From IMG/VR virus record IMGVR_UViG_3300041411_000304: a DNA stretch of 64,000 nt; one strand, written 5' to 3'. Made by a program: the position numbers and the translations under genes. The DNA is from an uncultured virus (IMG/VR IMGVR_UViG_3300041411_000304) (Duplodnaviria; Heunggongvirae; Uroviricota; Caudoviricetes). Under the pieces are notes generated by a model, which saw only the letters and a program-made list of their open reading frames with translations, was not told the DNA's origin and searched no databases. This document shows positions 1 to 47,395 of this stretch, piece after piece (position 1 is the first letter of the stretch; every line of letters begins with the position of its first letter).

Positions 1-230
1 GTAACGAAGACCGGCAGGAGGTTCTGGGTGCGCGCGTCAGCCAGATACTTCAGAAAGACCGGATTGGCCGAGTCGCGGTGCAGTTGGCCGTGGTATTCGT
101 CATAGACCGAGTGTCTGACTCCGCCATCCAGCCCGTTGTCAGGAAGGAGGTGGCGACGGTGTTGGTCAAGGGTGGCACAGCCGTCCAGGTCGAAGATGAC
201 CATGCCGGCGAAAACAAGTGTTTCACTCAT
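1..230 (-). CDS. HAD-superfamily phosphatase (polynucleotide kinase/phosphatase-like), runs off window start
   Basis: Manual translation from ATG at 230: MSETLVFAGMVIFDLDGC...LLPVFVT; HAD motif I DxDG and motif II Thr. Confidence 0.7.
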   Translation of the reverse strand, partial: MSETLVFAGMVIFDLDGCATLDQHRRHLLPDNGLDGGVRHSVYDEYHGQLHRDSANPVFLKYLADARTQNLLPVFV

Positions 231-15787: not shown

Positions 15788-16297
15788 ATGTCTGACGATT
15801 ATCTGCCAAACGCGAAAGACTTTGAAGACGAGAAGTTTGCGCTGATGAATACAGCATTCTTCGACAAATACATCAAGTTGCGTCTGGAGGGCGTCGGCTC
15901 CTATCGCGCATTTCGCCAGACCTTCGGTGACGATCTAATCGACGGCTTCACCACTTCTCGCATCTACGCGCTGGAGCGGAACCCGTATTTCACCAAGCAC
16001 TTCAAGCAGCGTTTCGACGTCATGAAGCCTGCGGATATGTGGTCGCCAAAGGTTTCCGTCTTCGAACTGCTCCAGATCGTGAAGGACGACATGAACAAGG
16101 CGACCAGCCGAATCTCGGCCATCAGAGAGTTGAACGTGCTCCTGGGCATCACAGTCATCGATGACCTCGGCAAGAGCAAGGTCAGCCGGTCGCTGGAGGA
16201 TTTCTACAAGGAGAATGGCGATGCAATCCAAGACGCTGTCGCCGGAGGGGACCAGGGCGAAATCCCAGCCCCAAACCCCACCCATACGACCCATTAG
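15788..16297 (+). CDS. terS: terminase small subunit
   Basis: Resembles recalled E217/PB1 TerS (RIYALERNPY, ELLQIVKD, SRISAIRELNVL, LEDFY). Confidence 0.85.
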   Translation: MSDDYLPNAKDFEDEKFALMNTAFFDKYIKLRLEGVGSYRAFRQTFGDDLIDGFTTSRIYALERNPYFTKHFKQRFDVMKPADMWSPKVSVFELLQIVKDDMNKATSRISAIRELNVLLGITVIDDLGKSKVSRSLEDFYKENGDAIQDAVAGGDQGEIPAPNPTHTTH

Positions 16298-16856: not shown

Positions 16857-17459
16857 TTACTCCTTGTCGGCGTTGGCTTCGAAGGCGCGGAACTCGTACA
16901 CGATGCCGTTGTGCTCGAAAGCCAGGGCGCCCTCCTCCTTCAGCTTCATGCGGAAGCGGATGTGCTTGGAATCCGGCAGGCCGAACTCTGCGAAGGCGGT
17001 GCGAACCGAACGGTGCTCTGTGGTCTTGCCGTTGACGGTGACGGTGACGTTATGGCGAGTCATCCGAGCAGCAGCCACCTCGGCATCGCCCCAGCTGGCA
17101 GCGATGGCTTTGCCGAGGTCTTTGGCCGGAGCGGTCTTGGCCTTCTCGCGCATCTGGCGCAGCTCGGCCAGCGCCTCTTCCTCGGTCACTTCTTCTTCCG
17201 GCTTGGCATCGGCAGCCGGGGCTTCTTCGGCCTTGGCTTTGGAAGCGTTGCGGGTCTTGTGGACCGGCAGATCGGTTTTGGCCACTTCCTCTTTTTCCGG
17301 CAGAGTGGCAACCAGGGCCAGGCAGCGACGTTCTGCGGTCTTGCGATCCGCGAACTTCTTGATGGTGGCGTCTGCGTTGTGGGCGTTCCAGAACTGAACC
17401 AGTTCCTTGGTGTCTACAGCGGTGATGTCGGCGCGGATGCGGGAGATGAGAGTGGCCAT
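16857..17459 (-). CDS. hypothetical (possibly DNA-binding) protein
   Basis: Start MATLIS; promoter TTGACG-17-GATAAT upstream. Confidence 0.75.
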   Translation of the reverse strand: MATLISRIRADITAVDTKELVQFWNAHNADATIKKFADRKTAERRCLALVATLPEKEEVAKTDLPVHKTRNASKAKAEEAPAADAKPEEEVTEEEALAELRQMREKAKTAPAKDLGKAIAASWGDAEVAAARMTRHNVTVTVNGKTTEHRSVRTAFAEFGLPDSKHIRFRMKLKEEGALAFEHNGIVYEFRAFEANADKE

Positions 17460-17600
17460 TTTCTGCGTTCCTCTTTCTGGGGTCTTTCGGTTGATCCGGC
17501 TTCTTGCCGGGAGTGAGGTCATTATCTATGAGCCTGTCCACACCGTCAACACCTTTTTGCAACTTTCTGCAAATAATGCATAGGTGCCGACGGGCGGTAG

Positions 17601-17846
17601 TCAAACAGACGACGAAATGGCGATGACGAAACCGGCCTCAGCAAAGTACGGCACCACACCCTTGTAGGCGATGGCAGTCGCGGCCAACTCCTGGCGCAGA
17701 GCCGACGAATTGGCCTTCACCCAGTCCAGGTATGCCACGGCGATGTCCTCCTCAGCCTTCTGCCAATCCTGGCCCATGCCGGTGAGCATGAATCCGAGTT
17801 CGATGCTGGAGACGGCGACGGTGATGATCATTGTTGACTGGGCCAT
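17601..17846 (-). CDS. small paralogue family member 1
   Basis: C-terminal YFAEAGFVIAI. Confidence 0.7.
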   Translation of the reverse strand: MAQSTMIITVAVSSIELGFMLTGMGQDWQKAEEDIAVAYLDWVKANSSALRQELAATAIAYKGVVPYFAEAGFVIAISSSV

Positions 17847-17849
17847 GGC

Positions 17850-18080
17850 TCAGCACTCCTGGATGACGATGCGATAGTGGCAACTCGCGAGATATCGCAG
17901 CACATTGTCGCGCGAATCGCGCGCCACCGAGTTTGCATAAGCCTGGCTGTAGCGCCGATGCGCTATTCTGACGACCTCTTCGGCCAGCAGATACACGGCC
18001 TCATCGTAATAGCGACCGGTGACAGAGAAGCCGATAGAGTCCGGAGAGTGCGCCAACTTGGCCTCGATTTTGATGGCCAT
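17850..18080 (-). CDS. small paralogue family member 2
   Basis: MAIKIEAK...FSVTG...YLASCHYRIVI. Confidence 0.7.
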   Translation of the reverse strand: MAIKIEAKLAHSPDSIGFSVTGRYYDEAVYLLAEEVVRIAHRRYSQAYANSVARDSRDNVLRYLASCHYRIVIQEC

Positions 18081-18325
18081 TACGCAGCCTCCGAGATGTG
18101 GATTTCGTATCCGCTCTGGATGAGGTAGACGAAGGGGTTGGCGCCGGATGCCGGCCAGATGGAATCGAGGACTTCGCAGAACTCGTCATTGCTCTTGTGC
18201 TTGGCAGCCCAGTCTTCGATCTGCTGGGCCAGCTCACGGTTGACCTTGTCTCGCGGGCAAGTCACCTCAAAGATGATCTCTTTGTCCGGGAGGACTTTGA
18301 TGGCGCGCACTTGGAGTATTGGCAT
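18080..18325 (-). CDS. small paralogue family member 3
   Basis: FEVT...YLIQSGYEIHI. Confidence 0.7.
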   Translation of the reverse strand: MPILQVRAIKVLPDKEIIFEVTCPRDKVNRELAQQIEDWAAKHKSNDEFCEVLDSIWPASGANPFVYLIQSGYEIHISEAA

Positions 18326-18385
18326 GGTTGGATGCTCCTTGGAAGTGAACGACCAGCCTGGCGCGGCTGGTCGTTCTGGGTCAGA

Positions 18386-18613
18386 TCAGAGGTTGTAGAT
18401 GGAGACGTCGAAGCCGTTGTAGGCCAGCCAGTCGATCAGACCGACCATACTCAGCGAGCGCATCTGGAAAGCATATTCGCTATCCTCAAAGACGGACTTG
18501 ATCCAGTCCTCAACGTCCATCTGCATCTTGACGCGAGCGCTTGCGATATTGCTGGCGGTGACTTCAAAGTGAACGTTGGCCATTTCGGCGTTCTTGGCTA
18601 CGATCTTGATCAT
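18386..18613 (-). CDS. small paralogue family member 4
   Basis: MIKIVAKNA...FEVT...WLAYNGFDVSI. Confidence 0.75.
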   Translation of the reverse strand: MIKIVAKNAEMANVHFEVTASNIASARVKMQMDVEDWIKSVFEDSEYAFQMRSLSMVGLIDWLAYNGFDVSIYNL

Positions 18614-18760
18614 GGCTTTCTGGTCCTTTCAACTTGGTAGGCGCCTCTCGCCTCCCAGTGAACAGAGTATCGCCTATCTCACAAATGGCAGGCAACAACT
18701 ATTTCAGCAGAATTATCGGACGGAATGAGGCGCCCCGGATTCCTCCGAGGCGCCTGGCCG

Positions 18761-18988
18761 TCACTCGTTGGTGATGGTGATGTCGTAGCCGGCGTCAGCC
18801 AGGGTGCCGAGGATGCCGCGATCATCGACCAGGCCCATCAGGCAGGTGTATTCGTGGTTGGAGATTTCGACGCTGGCCCACTGGTCAACGATCATGAAGA
18901 GGTGAGCTTCAGCACCGATGAAGTCCGGGCCGCTGGCTTCGAACTCACGGGACTCTTTGGCGTTCTTGGCGGTGATCTTGGTGGTCAT
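18761..18988 (-). CDS. small paralogue family member 5
   Basis: MTTKITAKNA...FEASG...LADAGYDITI. Confidence 0.75.
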   Translation of the reverse strand: MTTKITAKNAKESREFEASGPDFIGAEAHLFMIVDQWASVEISNHEYTCLMGLVDDRGILGTLADAGYDITITNE

Positions 18989-19132
18989 CTTTCTGATCCT
19001 TTCTGGTTCTGGTCAGCTTTATTGCCTTCCAGTGGACATAGTATCGCGCTCCCAGGAATGGAAGGCAACATTTATTTCAGCAGAATCGAGAGAAAGTTGA
19101 AGGCGCCCGAATCGCTCCGGGCGCCTGGTCGA

Positions 19133-19387
19133 TCATTCCTTGTAGACGTCGATGGCAAGACTGAAGCCGTCGCGCACAAGCCAGGACACGGCGCCCATGG
19201 CGGTCATCTCATCCAGCATCTCGTCATACGACTCGTTGTCGGTGCAATTCTCATTGAGGAACTCATCTACAACGTCATACAGGCGCTTGACGGCCTCTTC
19301 ATAGTCCTGGCCAACGACGTCGAAAACGGCGACGACTTGCGGGTGGGTGCCCTCGGTCATCTTGGAAGCGGTGATTTTGACTGGCAT
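19133..19387 (-). CDS. small paralogue family member 6
   Basis: MPVKITAS...FDVVGQDYEEA...WLVRDGFSLAI. Confidence 0.75.
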   Translation of the reverse strand: MPVKITASKMTEGTHPQVVAVFDVVGQDYEEAVKRLYDVVDEFLNENCTDNESYDEMLDEMTAMGAVSWLVRDGFSLAIDVYKE

Positions 19388-19474
19388 CTTTCTGGTCCTT
19401 TCTAGCCTGGAGGCGGAATGCCTTCCAGTGGACATAGTATCGCCTGGCTAAAAGTGGAAGTCAAGCGCCCTGGA

Positions 19475-19726
19475 TCAAAAGGACTTGGCCGGGTGATATC
19501 CGATGCTGAAGGAGTAGCGGAGGTCAAAGAGAAACCCCATCACGCCATCGCGCTCAATGGACTTAACCGCGTGGTCCATGCCAATGTCATCGTACTGGGT
19601 CTGCAAATGACGGAGGACTTCTAAGCGCAACTGCTCTTCTGCCTCTTTGAGCGTCTGGCCCTCGGAATTGTAACTGGCAGACGTCTCGTGTGGGCCGCGA
19701 GCCTCTATGCTGATGTTGAGTTTCAT
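19475..19726 (-). CDS. small paralogue family member 7
   Basis: ISIEAR...EGQTLKEA...FLFDLRYSFSI. Confidence 0.65.
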   Translation of the reverse strand: MKLNISIEARGPHETSASYNSEGQTLKEAEEQLRLEVLRHLQTQYDDIGMDHAVKSIERDGVMGFLFDLRYSFSIGYHPAKSF

Positions 19727-20017
19727 GACGTTCATTCCGATTGGTTGAAGTGGAGTGAATAGCACCAGACCGCCCGTCCGCCAATCCTTCTGACATTACC
19801 GGAACGGCCCAGCGCGACTGAAGCCCGATTGCGGCCTGGCGTCAAGTGCCGGCCTCCATACCATGAACGCCCGCATCCGTTTGGGCGATCCGGACACTGG
19901 CAGCTATATGCGCCTTGGGTGCCCGCCTCGATGATCGACGGGAAGCGCCTGCCTGATGTCCGACCTAGTCAGTAGCTGGCGCTGACCATCCATGCGTCGC
20001 GGTCCTGCTGGTGCCGA

Positions 20018-20188
20018 TTATACCTGGCTTGATGAGGTCCGGATAGCAATCGGAATGAGGCGCATGGGCGCGCGTTCGGTCTGTTCATCTCGGACATAGT
20101 CGCGCGTCGGCGTCCAGTCGACATGTCCACCTGGGCGTTTGATGGTCCATCCCATTGCGTTGCGCTTGTATTCTTGGTTATTAGTCAT
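20018..20188 (-). CDS. hypothetical protein
   Basis: MTNNQEY after AGGAG. Confidence 0.55.
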   Translation of the reverse strand: MTNNQEYKRNAMGWTIKRPGGHVDWTPTRDYVRDEQTERAPMRLIPIAIRTSSSQV

Positions 20189-20285
20189 CGGGCTTCTCCT
20201 GGCCACAGAACGCGCTACGCCCGCAGCAATTGCCGAGGGCGTAGGGTAGACCAGGGAAGAGGGACGGAAGTTCTAGGATCGTGTC

Positions 20286-20630
20286 CTATGGGCTCCTGGG
20301 CGGGGCTTTCGGGGCTTTCGGTGGGGTCTCGGGGCGCTCGGTCCTCGGCATCGAGGCAGATGCCGCGAGCGAGTTGTGTCCGATGGTGTTGAGAGATGCC
20401 TCATGTCTGACGAACCAGTCAATGGCGTCCGATTCTCTGCCTACGCACAGACGACAAAGGAAGCGAGTGAGACGTCCAGGCAGCAACTGGTCGGCCTCCA
20501 GAATTTTGGTCTTCCAGATTGGCTCCAGCCGTACCTGGTAGGCGCACGCAGCACAAGTGCACCAGGTGAATATCGGCAGTACCAGACTCACCCGGATGTA
20601 GGATCGATCCTCCTTCTGCTTGCGCCTCAT
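20286..20630 (-). CDS. Cys-rich hypothetical protein
   Basis: CxxC motifs; ATGA overlap. Confidence 0.55.
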   Translation of the reverse strand: MRRKQKEDRSYIRVSLVLPIFTWCTCAACAYQVRLEPIWKTKILEADQLLPGRLTRFLCRLCVGRESDAIDWFVRHEASLNTIGHNSLAASASMPRTERPETPPKAPKAPPRSP

Positions 20631-22815: not shown

Positions 22816-22892
22816 TCTGGGTTGCTCCGGTTTCGTTTCAGGTGAGACAAGTATGCCTGCCATCCAAATGGAAGGCAAGCGCTGATGTTCAC

Positions 22893-23628: not shown

Positions 23629-24096
23629 TTAGCTGATCTTTTTGATCCTCACCTCATATCCGAGTTCCACCAGGTGCTTGGTGAAGGAATCGGAGCTGAC
23701 GAAGCGCCCACGGATGGCCGAGGCGTCATGCATCCTCTGGTAGAGGTCGCGCAGCGCATAGTATTGCGTATGGCCTTCGCCGTGGCCCATCTCGGTGCCG
23801 TTGGCGTTGTATATCTTGACTTGGATTGGCATGGGGTCGGCCTCCTTTGGTGGATTCCTGGTGAGTGGCGCGACGTCCTGGGCGTACCATGGGCCGCGAT
23901 GGTGTGAGACGGCATGGTATAGCCGAAGCTCCAGCCGGTCGCGGCAATACTCCAGGGCGCGCGGTTTTGGGTTCTTTGGCAGGCGCTCGGCCAGTTCGTA
24001 CCGGCGTCCGTCCGTCTTGAAGAGCAGCACGAGCGTGTCGCGATTGGACACGCTCCAGCGCTTCCTGCCTTGGGAAAGCCAGGGCTTCTCAAACAT
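23629..24096 (-). CDS. hypothetical protein; internal start at 23832 gives a possible dispersed 8th paralogue
   Basis: AAGGAGG before MPIQVKI; ends LVELGYEVRI. Confidence 0.6.
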   Translation of the reverse strand: MFEKPWLSQGRKRWSVSNRDTLVLLFKTDGRRYELAERLPKNPKPRALEYCRDRLELRLYHAVSHHRGPWYAQDVAPLTRNPPKEADPMPIQVKIYNANGTEMGHGEGHTQYYALRDLYQRMHDASAIRGRFVSSDSFTKHLVELGYEVRIKKIS

Positions 24097-24265
24097 CAGC
24101 GCGACTCCCGCAGGACGAATAGAGGATCAGGACGGCACACACCGCCATGGTCACGAAGGCGACATTCTCAACCACGTCGACCGTCCTGGTCCGGGCATCG
24201 CTCGCCGCGCAACCGGACCAGACGATGTACGCAACGAGGCCGACGATGAAGGCGATGCCGCCCAT
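24089..24265 (-). CDS. small two-TM membrane protein (58 aa, not in ORF track)
   Basis: MGGIAFIVGLVAYIVW...AFVTMAVCAVLILY. Confidence 0.55.
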   Translation of the reverse strand: MGGIAFIVGLVAYIVWSGCAASDARTRTVDVVENVAFVTMAVCAVLILYSSCGSRADV

Positions 24266-24836: not shown

Positions 24837-24886
24837 TTCGTTGGAAGTGAGGCTAGTATGCCTCACATCAGAATGGAAGGCAACAC

Positions 24887-25126
24887 TTATTTCGGCAGAT
24901 AAGCGTTCAGGTGCTCGCGACCTTTGGTGATGCGACGAAGCTGAATGCAGAACTTGCGGCAGGCATATGGCGCCTCGTCAGCGTAGAATTCGATGATGTT
25001 TTTGATGTTGGCGACACCGGAGTGGCTGAGGTGGATGGCCCGGAGGACCGGACGGCCACGACGCTCTGCAGCGACCTCGATGCTGATGGTATCGCCTTCC
25101 TTGTACTGCCATTTTTGATTTGCCAT
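24887..25126 (-). CDS. hypothetical protein
   Basis: GGAG RBS; own promoter. Confidence 0.6.
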   Translation of the reverse strand: MANQKWQYKEGDTISIEVAAERRGRPVLRAIHLSHSGVANIKNIIEFYADEAPYACRKFCIQLRRITKGREHLNAYLPK

Positions 25127-25190
25127 TTCATCTCTCCGAAATAAGTGGAAGTGAGGCTATTATGAACGCCTCACTTCCATTCGGCAACAC

Positions 25191-31662: not shown

Positions 31663-31917
31663 TTAGAATGGGAAATCGTCGTAGATAGGTGGCAACTCAA
31701 AGGCCGGCGCCAATTTGCCGTCCTGGTCGCGCTTGCAGCCAGCAGAGCCGGCCCGGTGGGGATATTCACGGCAATCCAAATCGCACACGTACTCTCGTTT
31801 GACGGCATAGAGATTCCTCCAGCCGCACCGGGTGCACTTCTTGTCCGCTTGGACGTCACGGAAGCGGTGGCGCTTTCCGCAACGTCCACAACGAACGGTA
31901 GGCTCGTGAAACATCAA
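31663..31917 (-). CDS. Cys-rich Zn-ribbon protein
   Basis: CGRC, CTRC, CDLDC..HR. Confidence 0.65.
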   Translation of the reverse strand: MMFHEPTVRCGRCGKRHRFRDVQADKKCTRCGWRNLYAVKREYVCDLDCREYPHRAGSAGCKRDQDGKLAPAFELPPIYDDFPF

Positions 31918-32447
31918 CCTCGGAGCGCCCCATAGCCACTGTTGCAGCGCTCCGGATTAAATCGGCCAAGGATGTAGTCCGGGCGCCGGGAATCCGGCTG
32001 CGGGCACGCGGCAATTATGCGCCAGCCTTCATCGATCTTGCCTTGCAGGAGGTCGGTGCACGCATCCTCCAGCAGCATAGTTTCGTTGTAGGTGGCAAGG
32101 GCCTGGCCAGGCATGTGAACTTCGCAGCGCTCGTTGAAGTGCGACTCAAAAGGGGATGACATCGTCATCTGCTGCTCGAATCTTTGGGCCGCTACTTCGA
32201 AAGGGCGCGCAATTGCCGGCGCGGAAAGGTCCATGGAGCTGATGATGGCAGCCGGCTGGTGTCCGGCCAACCAGAGGTCGACCAGCTGTGAGTCCGTCAC
32301 CAGGACTTGCGGCTGGTTCTTTTGGCCTCCTTGGTAGGATATGCCCATTTGCTCCAGCAGTTGCAGGCGTTCTTCTTGCTTGACTTCCGATTCTGCGCCA
32401 TACATCCATTGGAGTTGTATGAGGTTGACGCGCGTTTTCCCTTGCAT
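31914..32447 (-). CDS. hypothetical protein
   Basis: DACTDLLQ...GWRIIAACPQPDSRRPDYILG. Confidence 0.7.
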   Translation of the reverse strand: MQGKTRVNLIQLQWMYGAESEVKQEERLQLLEQMGISYQGGQKNQPQVLVTDSQLVDLWLAGHQPAAIISSMDLSAPAIARPFEVAAQRFEQQMTMSSPFESHFNERCEVHMPGQALATYNETMLLEDACTDLLQGKIDEGWRIIAACPQPDSRRPDYILGRFNPERCNSGYGALRG

Positions 32448-32474
32448 CTCTTTCTGTTCCTTTCTGATTGATGT

Positions 32475-34054: not shown

Positions 34055-34193
34055 TTTGAAGCTCCTTGTATTAACTCACGCAACTCGGTCGTGTACATAT
34101 GCAATGTGACCTTAACAGAAATGTGATTGCCCTGTGTGGAGGTCACACAATATACTAGCCACAAGTCTCAGCCCAATAAACATGGAACCAAAC

Positions 34194-36488
34194 ATGTTCA
34201 AATTCCAGTGGCCTTTTAAGTCGGTCAAGAATAATGCCGACGAAGAACTTCGGCAAGTAAAAGAGCAATTTGCGCCTCAGTATGACGCCCTTGACCCACT
34301 AAGCCGCCTGGGAAAAGTTCGCGGATGGGATGTCACCGAGAAAGAGCCGTTCAAGCTCGCGACGGTGGATGACTTCCTGGAGAGCAAGCTGATGCCTGCC
34401 GGAGTCATGGACGGCGCCCTGGCAAAGAGCGCGATGGACGATGGCGACGGCACCATGCCGGCTGCCAAGGCCGCGAACGGCGCCAGCAACTACACGGTGC
34501 CGGAGCAACTTCAGAACTGGTACAATTCCCAGAGCTTCATCGGCTATCAGTCTTGCGCGATCATCGCCCAGCACTGGCTGGTGGACAAGGCCTGTTCCAT
34601 GGCCGGCGAAGACGCCCTGCGGAACGGATGGGAAGTCAAGACCGATGGCGTCAAGCTCACCGATGAACAAAAGGCGGTTATTGCCGATCTGGACATCAAG
34701 TTCAAGATCAAAGAAAACTTGGCCGAGTTCAACCGGTTCAAGAACATCTTTGGCATCCGAATCGCCCTGTTTGAAGTTGAGTCCGAGGACAAAGACTACT
34801 ACAGCAAGCCATTCAACATTGATGGCGTGATAGAAGGCTCATACAAGGGCGTTTCCCAGGTCGACCCGTACTGGATGATGCCAATGTTGACGAACGCATC
34901 AACCGCCGATCCGTCTGCCAAGGACTTCTATGAGCCGGACTATTGGATCATCAGTGGCAAGAAGTACCATCGCAGCCACCTGATCATCGCTCGCGGCCCG
35001 CAGCCAGCGGATATCCTCAAGCCAACATACATATTCGGCGGCATCCCGCTGACCCAGCGCATCTATGAGCGTGTGTATGCTGCCGAACGGACGGCAAACG
35101 AGGCGCCGCTGCTGGCAACCAACAAGCGGACCACGGCCATTCACGTGGACGTCGAAAAGGCCCTGGTCAACGAAGAAAGTTTTGTCAAACGCCTCCTGTT
35201 CTGGGTCAAATACCGGGACAACCATGCCGTCAAGGTTCTTGGCAAAGAAGAGTCCATGGAACAATTCGACACCAACTTGTCGGATTTTGACTCGGTCATC
35301 ATGAACCAATACCAACTTGTCGCGGCCATTGCCAAGACTCCAGCCACCAAGTTGCTTGGAACTTCGCCAAAGGGATTCAATGCCACCGGCGAGTTTGAGA
35401 TGGTATCCTATCACGAGGAACTGGAGTCCATCCAGGAGCATGTTTATGACCCGCTACTGGACCGTCACTACCAGCTGGCGTGCAAATCTCTCAACTTCAG
35501 CGCCCAACTGAAAGTTGTATGGAACTCGGTGGACTCCTGCACCAGCCAGCAGCTGGCCGACCTCAACGCGAAGAAGGCCGAGACTGATGAGCGCAACGTC
35601 AATATGGGCGCGATTTCGCCTGACGAAGTTCGCCAGCGTCTGCGCGATGATCCGCGTTCCGGATACAATCGCCTGACTGACGATGAGGCCGAGATGGAAC
35701 CTGGCATGTCGCCGGAGAACCTGGCCGAATTGGAGAAGGCCGGCAGCGAGGCGGTCGAAGCCGAGGCCGCGCGCACGGCTTCGGCGCTTGGCGCGACCCC
35801 TCCGACCGCCCCGACAACGCCTAAGCCCCAGGCCGCGCCCATCCCGGCGCCCAAAGCCAAGGAGGACGCCGAGCCGGCGCCGACCAAAGCCGACGAAATC
35901 CGGAACCTGCTGGCCTCGTTGGTGTCGAAGCTAGACGACCTGGCCGACGCGACCATGGCCGAAGGCGTCGACCTTCAGCACGACGACGCGCCCGGCCTCC
36001 ATCGCACCACCAAACCGAGTGTGAAGGGCATGGAGCCTAGCGTATATGGACAGGCCCGACTGGTTGGCGAGAAAGACCACTCCCAGCTCCACCGCATCAA
36101 GATGGACGGCATCGTGTCTCTGATCGAGAACCCGCGCGGAAGCATCAGACAAGGCAAAGACGGCTCGTGGCGCGTCAAGATGCCTCACCACTACGGCTTC
36201 ATCAAAGGGACCAAAGGCGCGGATGGCGATGAGGTTGACTGCTTCATCGGTCCTAACTTGAAGTCCAAGCGTGTGTTCGTGGTCAACCAGGTCGGCAAAA
36301 CCGGCCAGTTTGACGAGCACAAGTGTATGCTGGGTTTCGACTCCGAAACCGACGCACGCAAAGGCTATCTTGGCAGCTTCTCGCCCGGCTGGGACGGCCT
36401 CGGCTCAATCCACGAAATCCACCTGAATGACTTCCGGAAGTGGCTGGCGAAAGGCGACACTAGCAAACCGTTCGGGGCCATCCGTTGA
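34194..36488 (+). CDS. portal protein (DUF1073-type) with C-terminal inorganic-pyrophosphatase-like domain
   Basis: YHRSHLI, TPATKLLGTSPKGFNATGE; C-terminal HYGFIKGTKGADGDEVDCF...DEHK; start could be 34182. Confidence 0.88.
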   Translation: MFKFQWPFKSVKNNADEELRQVKEQFAPQYDALDPLSRLGKVRGWDVTEKEPFKLATVDDFLESKLMPAGVMDGALAKSAMDDGDGTMPAAKAANGASNYTVPEQLQNWYNSQSFIGYQSCAIIAQHWLVDKACSMAGEDALRNGWEVKTDGVKLTDEQKAVIADLDIKFKIKENLAEFNRFKNIFGIRIALFEVESEDKDYYSKPFNIDGVIEGSYKGVSQVDPYWMMPMLTNASTADPSAKDFYEPDYWIISGKKYHRSHLIIARGPQPADILKPTYIFGGIPLTQRIYERVYAAERTANEAPLLATNKRTTAIHVDVEKALVNEESFVKRLLFWVKYRDNHAVKVLGKEESMEQFDTNLSDFDSVIMNQYQLVAAIAKTPATKLLGTSPKGFNATGEFEMVSYHEELESIQEHVYDPLLDRHYQLACKSLNFSAQLKVVWNSVDSCTSQQLADLNAKKAETDERNVNMGAISPDEVRQRLRDDPRSGYNRLTDDEAEMEPGMSPENLAELEKAGSEAVEAEAARTASALGATPPTAPTTPKPQAAPIPAPKAKEDAEPAPTKADEIRNLLASLVSKLDDLADATMAEGVDLQHDDAPGLHRTTKPSVKGMEPSVYGQARLVGEKDHSQLHRIKMDGIVSLIENPRGSIRQGKDGSWRVKMPHHYGFIKGTKGADGDEVDCFIGPNLKSKRVFVVNQVGKTGQFDEHKCMLGFDSETDARKGYLGSFSPGWDGLGSIHEIHLNDFRKWLAKGDTSKPFGAIR

Positions 36489-45286: not shown

Positions 45287-45352
45287 GCCTGGCCGCCCGG
45301 TTGAATGGCCGGGCGGTTTTCGATACAATCAGGACTCCTTAGAGGACGCACC

Positions 45353-45796
45353 ATGATCAACATTTCCGGCTTCTCCCTTTCGGCCATTTGCGTGGCCAGC
45401 AACACATTCCCCAGCGGCGTCTCGCTGTCGGCCTTTGCCGATGATACCGACCCGATGGACTCTCCCGACTTCACCGCTGCCGACACCGCCATGGGCCTGA
45501 ACGGTGACCTGGTCGTGTGGACCCGTCCGGGCGGCATTGAGATGGTGTTTGGCATCATCCCGAACAGCGAAGACGACATCAACCTGGAGGCCCTGCTGAA
45601 TGCTAACCGCGTTGGCAAGTCCAAGTCCGGCTCCCAGGACATCATCAGCATCGTTCTGAACTATCCGAACGGCAAGAAGGTGACCGGCTCCAACGGCGTC
45701 ATCACCCAAGGCCCGCTGATGCCCTCGGTCGCCTCTTCCGGTCGCCTGAAGAGCCGTGTGTATCGCTTCCGCTTCGAAAGTGTGACCCAAGGCTAA
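45353..45796 (+). CDS. tail tube protein
   Basis: ISGF, FADDTDP, GLNGDLVVW; follows sheath. Confidence 0.8.
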   Translation: MINISGFSLSAICVASNTFPSGVSLSAFADDTDPMDSPDFTAADTAMGLNGDLVVWTRPGGIEMVFGIIPNSEDDINLEALLNANRVGKSKSGSQDIISIVLNYPNGKKVTGSNGVITQGPLMPSVASSGRLKSRVYRFRFESVTQG

Positions 45797-46885: not shown

Positions 46886-46894
46886 GGTCGAAAG

Positions 46895-47395
46895 ATGGAA
46901 GACATCAGCGGGTTTGGAACAGAAATAATGATTTTGGCGCTGCAGTCCTTCCCTATGGGATTCAGCTTGTCCAAATTCGCTGATGACACCGACCCGATAA
47001 GCGCCAAGGAGATGGAGCCGTTTGGCTATGAACCGCTTTATGACGGCACCATCTTCACCTATGCCCAGGCAGCGCCAATCGAGGTCAGTGTATCCGTCAT
47101 TCCGAATAGCGACGAAGACATCAACCTGAAAATCCTCCTCGGCAACAAGAAGGGTGGCCTGTCCCTCTTCCCGTTTGAGGATATCACCACCATGGCAATC
47201 TCCTACCCTGATGGCGGTAGGACGATCCTAAGCCACGGCAGCATCCTGCGCGGCCCGGCCCTGGACTCGATTCAAAGCACCGGTCGCAGAAAGAGCAACA
47301 CCTACACGTTCGTGTTCGGCACCGTCACCGGCGCCCAATCGGCCAAGCAGCTGATTGCCGGTGGAATCCAATCGGCCTTGGGGTTCTTTGGTTGA
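46895..47395 (+). CDS. tail tube paralogue (tube initiator)
   Basis: ISGFG...FADDTDP...IPNSDEDINL shared with 45353-45796. Confidence 0.75.
   Translation: MEDISGFGTEIMILALQSFPMGFSLSKFADDTDPISAKEMEPFGYEPLYDGTIFTYAQAAPIEVSVSVIPNSDEDINLKILLGNKKGGLSLFPFEDITTMAISYPDGGRTILSHGSILRGPALDSIQSTGRRKSNTYTFVFGTVTGAQSAKQLIAGGIQSALGFFG

Follow-up and report, generated by a model that had tools for sequence, protein, structure and literature searches.

Why would a phage carry seven small, related genes side by side, and on what would their products act? The question is raised by a locus of the uncultured Caudoviricetes virus IMGVR_UViG_3300041411_000304, of which a stretch of 64,000 nucleotides (hereafter the window; all positions are window positions) was analyzed. 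At 17601–19726, seven adjacent genes, m1 to m7, lie on the minus strand and encode products of 75–84 amino acids. A first-pass annotation of this DNA had described seven such open reading frames (ORFs) with a set of common motifs, and all of these ORFs and motifs were found on the minus strand. The explanation that we favor, and hold to be slightly better than an even bet, is that the array is a lineage-specific tandem expansion encoding non-enzymatic early proteins that bind host proteins, most probably components of anti-phage defense.

To avoid circularity, family membership was assessed by leaving out each member in turn and comparing a profile of the remaining members with every one of the window's 1053 stop-to-stop ORFs. 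The left-out member took rank 1 of 1053 in 7/7 runs, with expectation (E) values of 5.8e-11 (m4), 3.4e-10 (m5), 1.8e-7 (m2), 5e-7 (m6), 6.5e-7 (m7), 0.001 (m1), and 0.014 (m3), while the top non-member was never better than E 0.42. In a BLASTP comparison with all window ORFs of at least 50 amino acids, m4 matched m5 (3e-7) and m5 matched m6 (2e-4). The proposal that the genes belong to one family despite low identity, which amounts to 15–31% between the paralogous proteins, is thus borne out. Collectively, the results indicate that the seven genes form one family, with a likeness beyond chance.

A fold was predicted with confidence for one member, m5. An AlphaFold2 model of m5, built from a family alignment of only 8 rows, reached a predicted local distance difference test (pLDDT) score of 96.3 and a predicted template modeling (pTM) score of 0.83, and a separate model of m5 in the ESM Atlas has a pLDDT of 0.85. 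The modeled m5 chain follows the order β-β-α-α-β, with strands at residues 3–9, 14–20, and 69–74 and helices at 23–41 and 44–65. In the family alignment, a single column is invariant (Ile); the other shared columns are nearly all hydrophobic or Gly, and the alignment consensus contains no conserved polar or catalytic residue across the seven members. Additionally, the strand residues that point away from the helices in the m5 model are polar (Thr, Lys, Ser, His). The isoelectric point (pI) is 4.1–5.5 in 6/7 members, m2 being the exception at 7.8. Such a pattern marks the family as a stable small scaffold whose surfaces vary and which lacks an enzymatic center, in keeping with the earlier idea of a single, diversified scaffold. 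Since the members lack a conserved polar site, they most likely act by binding.

The annotation had also stated that the family was not recognizable, and the searches agree. In Pfam and PHROG scans of eight proteins (the seven and a proposed eighth copy), nothing significant was obtained for the seven array proteins; the sole match at E ≤1e-3 was phrog_5896, in the N-terminal part of the 155-amino-acid ORF that contains the proposed copy. The family profile found no relative among PDB sequences (best E 0.061), a tblastn search of m5 against 50,697 phage records gave no match at E ≤1, and megablast of 17000–20500 against phage records gave none. When 5.8 billion proteins were searched by a word index with the family profile, 6 matches were returned, all of them the window's own or near-identical sequences. 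Similarly, an exhaustive HMMER scan of 1.84 billion representative proteins returned 15 matches at E ≤1e-3, namely the profile's own 8 sequences, a second m2 allele (P0013), and 6 long proteins (577–3754 amino acids). The long proteins were taken as spurious because their matching stretches are short, multiple, and scattered. The closest predicted-structure neighbors are phage proteins of about 82 amino acids in BFVD (A0A1J0MFG6 of Pectobacterium phage PP101 and proteins of Escherichia phages SKA49 and vB_EcoM_4HA13). They are similar in size to the array proteins and reach template modeling (TM) scores of 0.58–0.63 and Foldseek probabilities of 0.96–0.99, but with E values of only 0.027–0.059 and identities of 12–14%; being uncharacterized, they explain nothing. 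Fold resemblance to the C-terminal domain of AcrIIA15 (PDB 8jfo/8jft) and to the N-terminal (antitoxin) domain of HicB, judged by structural superposition, is at most tentative. The family is therefore an orphan whose sequence relatives, among the sets searched, occur only in this phage lineage.

The order of the genes on the minus strand begins with m7 (19475–19726; 83 amino acids, pI 5.5), whose start is ambiguous between 19726 and 19735. It is followed by m6 (19133–19387; 84 amino acids, pI 4.1, net charge about −12), m5 (18761–18988; 75 amino acids, pI 4.4), and m4 (18386–18613; 75 amino acids, pI 4.6). A longer alternative start of m6 (19435) lies directly after a −10 box, and its use is unlikely. 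The remaining genes are closely spaced: m3 (18080–18325; 81 amino acids, pI 4.8) has its own AAGGAG ribosome-binding site, the start of m2 (17850–18080; 76 amino acids) overlaps the m3 stop (TAATG), and m1 (17601–17846; 81 amino acids, pI 4.3), the final gene, is translationally close-coupled to m2 across a 3-nt gap, with AGGAG upstream of m1. Long antisense ORFs are also present in the region.

To measure selection, the window was compared with L002, a 30-kb IMG/VR contig that is 94–98% identical over the array region and contains the complete set of seven genes in unchanged order. Ratios of nonsynonymous to synonymous differences (pN/pS) were derived from Nei-Gojobori counts in the minus-strand frames. 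For 6/7 genes they range from 0.03 to 0.34 (m1, 0.03; m5, 0.08; m3, 0.23; m4, 0.24; m7, 0.26; m6, 0.34), indicating that these six are real genes under purifying selection. For m2, pN/pS is 0.59 and pS is 0.53, values that indicate allele replacement: the two proteins are 51% identical, with the first ~30 residues recognizably alike and the middle and C-terminal parts replaced.

The array is partly built of repeated expression cassettes. A single module emerges when the spacers upstream of m6, m5, and m4 are aligned. It is composed of a GGCGCC stem-loop (after m6 and m5 only), AATTCTGCTGAAATA, a promoter-like site of the form TTG(C/A)CT-17/18-GATACT, an initial transcribed string, (A/C)TGT(C/T)CACTGG(A/G)AGGC, and a leader, GAAAGGA(C/T)CAGAAAG, that adjoins the ATG. 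As the annotation had claimed, this module is repeated before members 4–6: both strings occur exactly three times each in the 64 kb, solely at the heads of m4, m5, and m6. Moreover, GAAAGGAYCAGAAAG has exactly 3 copies, before the same genes (with up to 3 mismatches, 10 matches against 2.72 expected), and GATACTNTGTYCACTGGRAGG has 3 copies against 0.02 expected. The m4 cassette head (18616–18695) consists of TTGCCT-18-GATACT (18666–18695), CTGTTCACTGGGAGGC, and the leader and ribosome-binding site GAAAGGACCAGAAAG (18616–18630). Similarly, the m5 head (18989–19068) has TTGCCT-17-GATACT (19040–19068), ATGTCCACTGGAAGGC, and the leader GAAAGGATCAGAAAG (18989–19003). The m6 head (19388–19464) has TTGACT-17-GATACT (19436–19464), ATGTCCACTGGAAGGC, and the leader GAAAGGACCAGAAAG (19388–19402), with no preceding hairpin. 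No own promoters were found for m3, m2, and m1.

Three stem-loops lie on the 3′ side of the genes. The GGCGCC hairpins claimed for two of the spacers are indeed present after m6 (19101–19126; −23 kcal/mol, z −3.0) and after m5 (18719–18762; −32.4 kcal/mol, z −4.9). To these must be added a different stem-loop after m4 (18347–18376; −26.4 kcal/mol, z −5.3), with a 12-bp stem formed by GAACGACCAGCC and GGCTGGTCGTTC. For each of the three, 0/200 shuffled sequences fold as well. They are without U-tracts, and a consensus scan did not call them terminators; they may serve in either termination or stabilization of transcripts. A conserved RNA structure was not supported for the leader, whose predicted folds do not surpass those of shuffled sequences (z −1.1 to −1.7), and Rfam gave no match at the gathering score, with only sub-threshold hairpin matches in 17400–20400. 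In a sliding comparison, the three cassettes are 0.7–0.8 identical over the promoter, the leader, and the first ~10 codons; nucleotide identity drops to 0.3–0.5 in the gene bodies and climbs again over the last strand. From this profile it follows that the whole cassette is the unit of duplication, with its regulatory head kept or homogenized.

The promoter part of the module, in contrast to the strings, is not specific to the array. When the whole window was scanned with the pattern TTG[AC]CN-16..18-NATA[CA]T and shuffled sequences as a control, 17 sites were found against 0.67 expected (maximum 5). Among these, 14/17 lie on the minus strand and 10/17 fall within 17.5–31.5 kb, and the consensus also precedes early genes at 22878, 24883, 25187, 26102, and 31454. 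The sites have common flanks, AAATAAGTG upstream and GCCTCAC downstream. Based on these sequences, the site appears to be the general early-type promoter of the phage rather than one special to the array, which has three of them within 1.2 kb. Side by side, the early-type promoters on the minus strand between 17521 and 31454 (for example, 19025–19068, 24850–24883, and 25159–25187) display the flanks AAATAAGTG upstream and GCCTCACTTCCA downstream. Many of them are bracketed by inverted repeats, such as TTGCCTTCCA ... TGGAAGGCAA around the m5 promoter; at 24855–24883, the inverted repeat GTGAGGC-ATACTA-GCCTCAC spans the −10 element. These repeats resemble operators at which a dimeric regulator might shut off the early promoters.

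The genomic position of the array bears on its role. A 784-amino-acid protein (34134–36488) shares 66% identity with the portal/minor head protein of Pbunavirus (PB1-like) Pseudomonas phages, and several other window genes have Pbunavirus homologues; at the nucleotide level, no phage record matched 17000–20500. The virus is placed as an uncultured soil (rhizosphere) phage and, by these protein matches, a distant relative of Pbunavirus. When the proteins of phage 14-1 (L008) were located on the window by tblastn and phmmer, homologues of gp76 (15791–16279), gp77 (16875–17432), gp83 (23887–24126; E 2e-7), and gp88 (24905–25126; E 1e-9) were found on the minus strand in Pbunavirus order and orientation. 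The gp83-like and gp77-like genes enclose the array, which is placed directly upstream of the gp77-like gene (16857–17522, minus strand; phrog_4730, 58% identity, E 1e-52); this gene has its own promoter-like site at 17521–17549. The upstream anchor is the gp83-like stretch at 23866–24096 on the same strand. Between its gp83 and gp77 genes, 14-1 carries gp82, gp81, gp80, gp79, and gp78 (~2.1 kb); the equivalent interval of the window comprises ~6.1 kb of ORFan genes and the array, and no tblastn match to gp78–gp82 was obtained there or elsewhere in the window at E ≤0.01.

In a 2026 preprint, gp80–88 of 14-1 are defined as an anti-defense island, in which gp80 (Bdi1) and gp81 (Bdi2) are broad defense inhibitors, gp82 and gp88 are further anti-defense genes, and gp88 is anti-END; the Pbunavirus island locus is described there as plastic, with genes gained and lost (10.64898/2026.06.18.732992). 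A 2026 review lists Bdi1 and Bdi2 as acting against Druantia and Zorya by an unknown mechanism (PMC12904381). The gene numbers of the preprint were matched by us to the GenBank record, unambiguously for gp80–82, while gp88 corresponds to either ORF88 or ORF88.1. The two Bdi genes of 14-1, gp80 and gp81, form a tandem pair of paralogues (34% identity over 71 amino acids; L008 10506–10991 and, in DL60, L001 4406–4864), so paralogue pairs at this locus have precedent. The array thus shares with the Pbunavirus island the neighborhood, gene order, and strand, the runs of small ORFans upstream of a gp77 homologue, and the tandem paralogues. In contrast, the array proteins are not homologous to the genes of the 14-1 interval, and a sevenfold expansion of one fold is not described for that island. 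By analogy, the position between the gp83 and gp77 homologues lends indirect backing to the anti-defense or host-takeover role that the annotation had suggested.

Two possible homologies at this locus were rejected. Among gp78–gp82, gp80 alone scored by phmmer, against m3 (15.9–16.0 bits), which raised the possibility of kinship with Bdi1; family-to-family hhalign, with the seven members and the second m2 allele on one side and seven Bdi-like sequences on the other, gave a probability of 0.16% over 2 aligned columns, and the hidden Markov model (HMM) of the array family scored gp80 at only 2.1 bits. Homology to gp83-like proteins, prompted by a MAFFT misalignment, received an hhalign probability of 0.5%, and the PHROG scan of the seven proteins did not contain phrog_5896.

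Comparison with close relatives reveals where the region varies. The array genes are 91–96% identical to those of L002, whereas the flanking blocks are 98.5–99.4% identical; divergence is thus locally concentrated in the array. Further material came from nine rhizosphere-metagenome runs of nine studies that hold parts of the region; none of the nine is listed as an RNA data set. In 4/4 other runs, positions 17865–18057, within m2, are exchanged for 197 other nucleotides. Run X2 additionally has a 295-nt contig identical to the m2 allele of the window; both alleles are therefore present in X2, indicating that two m2 alleles circulate together. Full-length relatives are L002 and a 10,187-nt contig of run X3, and 2/2 carry seven genes. 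In run X4, one contig (depth 2.5) joins 18980 to 19385 with two letters between, skipping 18981–19384, that is, m6 and its leader. The joint falls inside a 36-nt repeat (18969–19004 and 19368–19403, 83% identical) made up of the repeated leader and 5′ coding stretch, and an m6-bearing contig of depth 6.95 occurs in the same run. We treat this single, low-depth joint, drawn from assembled contigs, as a lead.

The array region was further sought in wider collections. An IMG/VR protein scan with m5 yielded 1 locus, the L002 contig, and a viral pattern scan returned only the same contig. The gp77-like protein gave 5 IMG/VR loci, 4 of which are Pbunavirus-like or more distant and are without the array family. 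Metagenome scans by protein and by promoter pattern found no further relatives. The nearest record to the window, G001, lacks the array region, and array proteins were also found on a 72,579-nt contig. Directly upstream of the array, the 559 nt before the next gene (19727–20285) are 98.9% identical to L002, with the genes on both sides at 92–96%. This stretch contains only a 62-amino-acid ORF (20018–20206); as a candidate structured RNA, it has no Rfam match and folds no better than shuffles (z −0.67).

The annotation had regarded the locus as a gene accordion, in which repeated spacers allow gain, loss, and shuffling of copies. Rapid change in copy number is not supported. Near-identical copies, the hallmark of an accordion, are absent: protein identity is 15–31%, and nucleotide identity over the gene bodies is 0.3–0.5, as befits old duplications. 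The number of genes is seven in both relatives that span the array, the X4 joint being the one sign of change. Recombinational shuffling fares better, as far as the m2 exchange in 4/4 runs and the two alleles of X2 are concerned; for the skipping of m6 there is the one depth-2.5 joint. In the K3L-type gene accordion of poxviruses, a host-antagonist gene is present in tandem copies that arise by recombination between repeats. Those copies are recent and near-identical, and their number varies between close isolates, whereas the present copies are strongly diverged and equal in number in both relatives. Phage T4 is reported to acquire segmental amplifications of a counter-defense gene by recombination (PMC9391042). 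By analogy, an amplification of this type could be the first step that seeds such arrays. The present array resembles what such a process would leave behind over a long time rather than an accordion in motion.

Taken as a history, the favored explanation would run as follows. The ancestral unit would have been the whole cassette, comprising a stem-loop, an early sigma-70-type promoter, a leader with ribosome-binding site, and a coding sequence. After ancient duplication, the heads would have stayed 70–80% identical while the coding bodies diverged to the present protein identities. In the resulting layout, m7 heads the array, m6, m5, and m4 would each be transcribed from their own promoter, and m3-m2-m1 would be read as a coupled unit. 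We infer that the products, small and mostly acidic α/β proteins, are expressed early and work as binders of host proteins. With a common core but a surface of its own, each paralogue would neutralize a separate host protein at an early stage of infection. These host proteins would most probably be components of anti-phage defense and less probably the housekeeping targets of host takeover. It is the position together with the pattern of variation that makes defense components the most likely targets. Taken on their own, they fall a little short of an even chance; taken together with host takeover, they come out somewhat above it.

The foremost competing explanation is that the proteins are directed at the housekeeping machinery of the host, shutting off functions such as RNA polymerase, replication, division, or nucleases instead of immunity. 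Small early proteins of other lytic phages act on such machinery, and the host-takeover module of Bacillus phage SPO1 has the same cassette layout. The early-type promoters, the small acidic binders without a catalytic signature, and the cassettes with their own promoter and ribosome-binding site all suit this account. Nevertheless, seven diverged copies are harder to explain against conserved housekeeping proteins than against variable immune targets, the position matches an island reported as anti-defense in Pbunaviruses, and the divergence hot spot and the allele swap also suit variable targets; we regard host takeover as unlikely. The acidity of most members could alternatively be read as imitation of DNA that blocks DNA-binding defense nucleases, which would be a special case of anti-defense. 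All structural scores are in the noise range and m2 is near neutral (pI 7.8), leaving this possibility with a slim chance.

The proteins might instead act jointly, as subunits of one hetero-oligomer or as regulators of the phage's own early program. Translational coupling of m3-m2-m1 by the TAATG overlap and the 3-nt gap would fit this arrangement, as would the copy number of seven in both full-length relatives and the purifying selection on 6/7 genes. Against it, the separate promoters and stem-loops of m4, m5, and m6 suggest that these genes are dosed independently; m2 has been swapped for a 51% identical allele while its neighbors are unchanged; and the polar outward strand residues of the m5 model leave no obvious interface on the sheet face. 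We consider joint action improbable. Finally, the absence of homologues outside the lineage and the long antisense ORFs could suggest chance ORFs, or decaying functionless duplicates, in a GC-rich spacer region. This explanation is effectively refuted by the low pN/pS of six genes in the minus-strand frames, the confident fold, the first rank of 7/7 members in the leave-one-out runs, the ribosome-binding sites and promoters, and the retention of the genes in strains from at least four further runs.

Literature searches on Pbunavirus early-gene paralogues and on tandem paralogous anti-defense genes turned up no account of an array like this one. What is new is the protein family; phage early accessory or anti-defense islands with paralogue expansion are a known kind of locus. 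A more far-reaching version of the favored explanation, to which we give rather long odds, holds that one 75-amino-acid scaffold radiated into at least seven specificities within an anti-defense island. It would form a "binder library" in which each paralogue acts against a different immune system, with cassettes exchanged between co-circulating strains and occasionally lost via the promoter-leader module. Exchange is suggested by the two m2 alleles and loss by the m6 joint. If this version were true, the fold would represent a new and evolvable platform for inhibitors, and seven new anti-defense activities would be gained at once.

Phage accessory islands are the source of most newly found anti-defense proteins, and expansions of paralogues there point to scaffolds employed repeatedly in evolution against several targets. 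The array offers seven small orphan proteins as candidates at the position of a published island, a compact and cheap set for synthesis and screening, in which the natural allele swap points to m2 as the most contested member. Its weight is lessened in that the phage is uncultured.

The possible eighth copy (m8, 23629–23832, minus strand) is not supported as a member of the family and was rejected. It was placed only at rank 3 (E 1.1) by the leave-one-out procedure, and AlphaFold with the family alignment gave just pLDDT 59.2 and pTM 0.35. The segment is instead the basic C-terminal tail (67 amino acids, pI 9.1) of the 155-amino-acid ORF at 23629–24096. In its N-terminal part, this ORF is a member of phrog_5896, which includes 14-1 gp83. 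The ORF therefore consists of a gp83-like domain and a 67-amino-acid basic extension, and the Pbunavirus homologues (108 amino acids) are without the extension. An AAGGAGG-like string precedes an internal ATG of the ORF, and separate synthesis of the tail might be possible.

Other genes of the window recall the Pbunavirus island as well. The ORF at 24887–25126 is a phrog_5496 homologue of 14-1 PP141_gp88 (36% identity, E 1e-9) and would represent the anti-END nuclease gene of the island, provided that the preprint numbering follows the locus tags. A homologue of 14-1 gp84 (E 2e-18) lies at 31917–32474 on the minus strand, ~8 kb from the other island genes, indicating that the island is rearranged relative to Pbunavirus. 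Within the span of this ORF, a copy of the array leader string with one mismatch (GAAAGGAACAGAAAG) occurs at 32450–32464. Paralogous ORFs are also present in the structural region, where those at 45305–45793 and 46886–47392 on the plus strand are 38.5% identical over 148 amino acids (E 3e-32).

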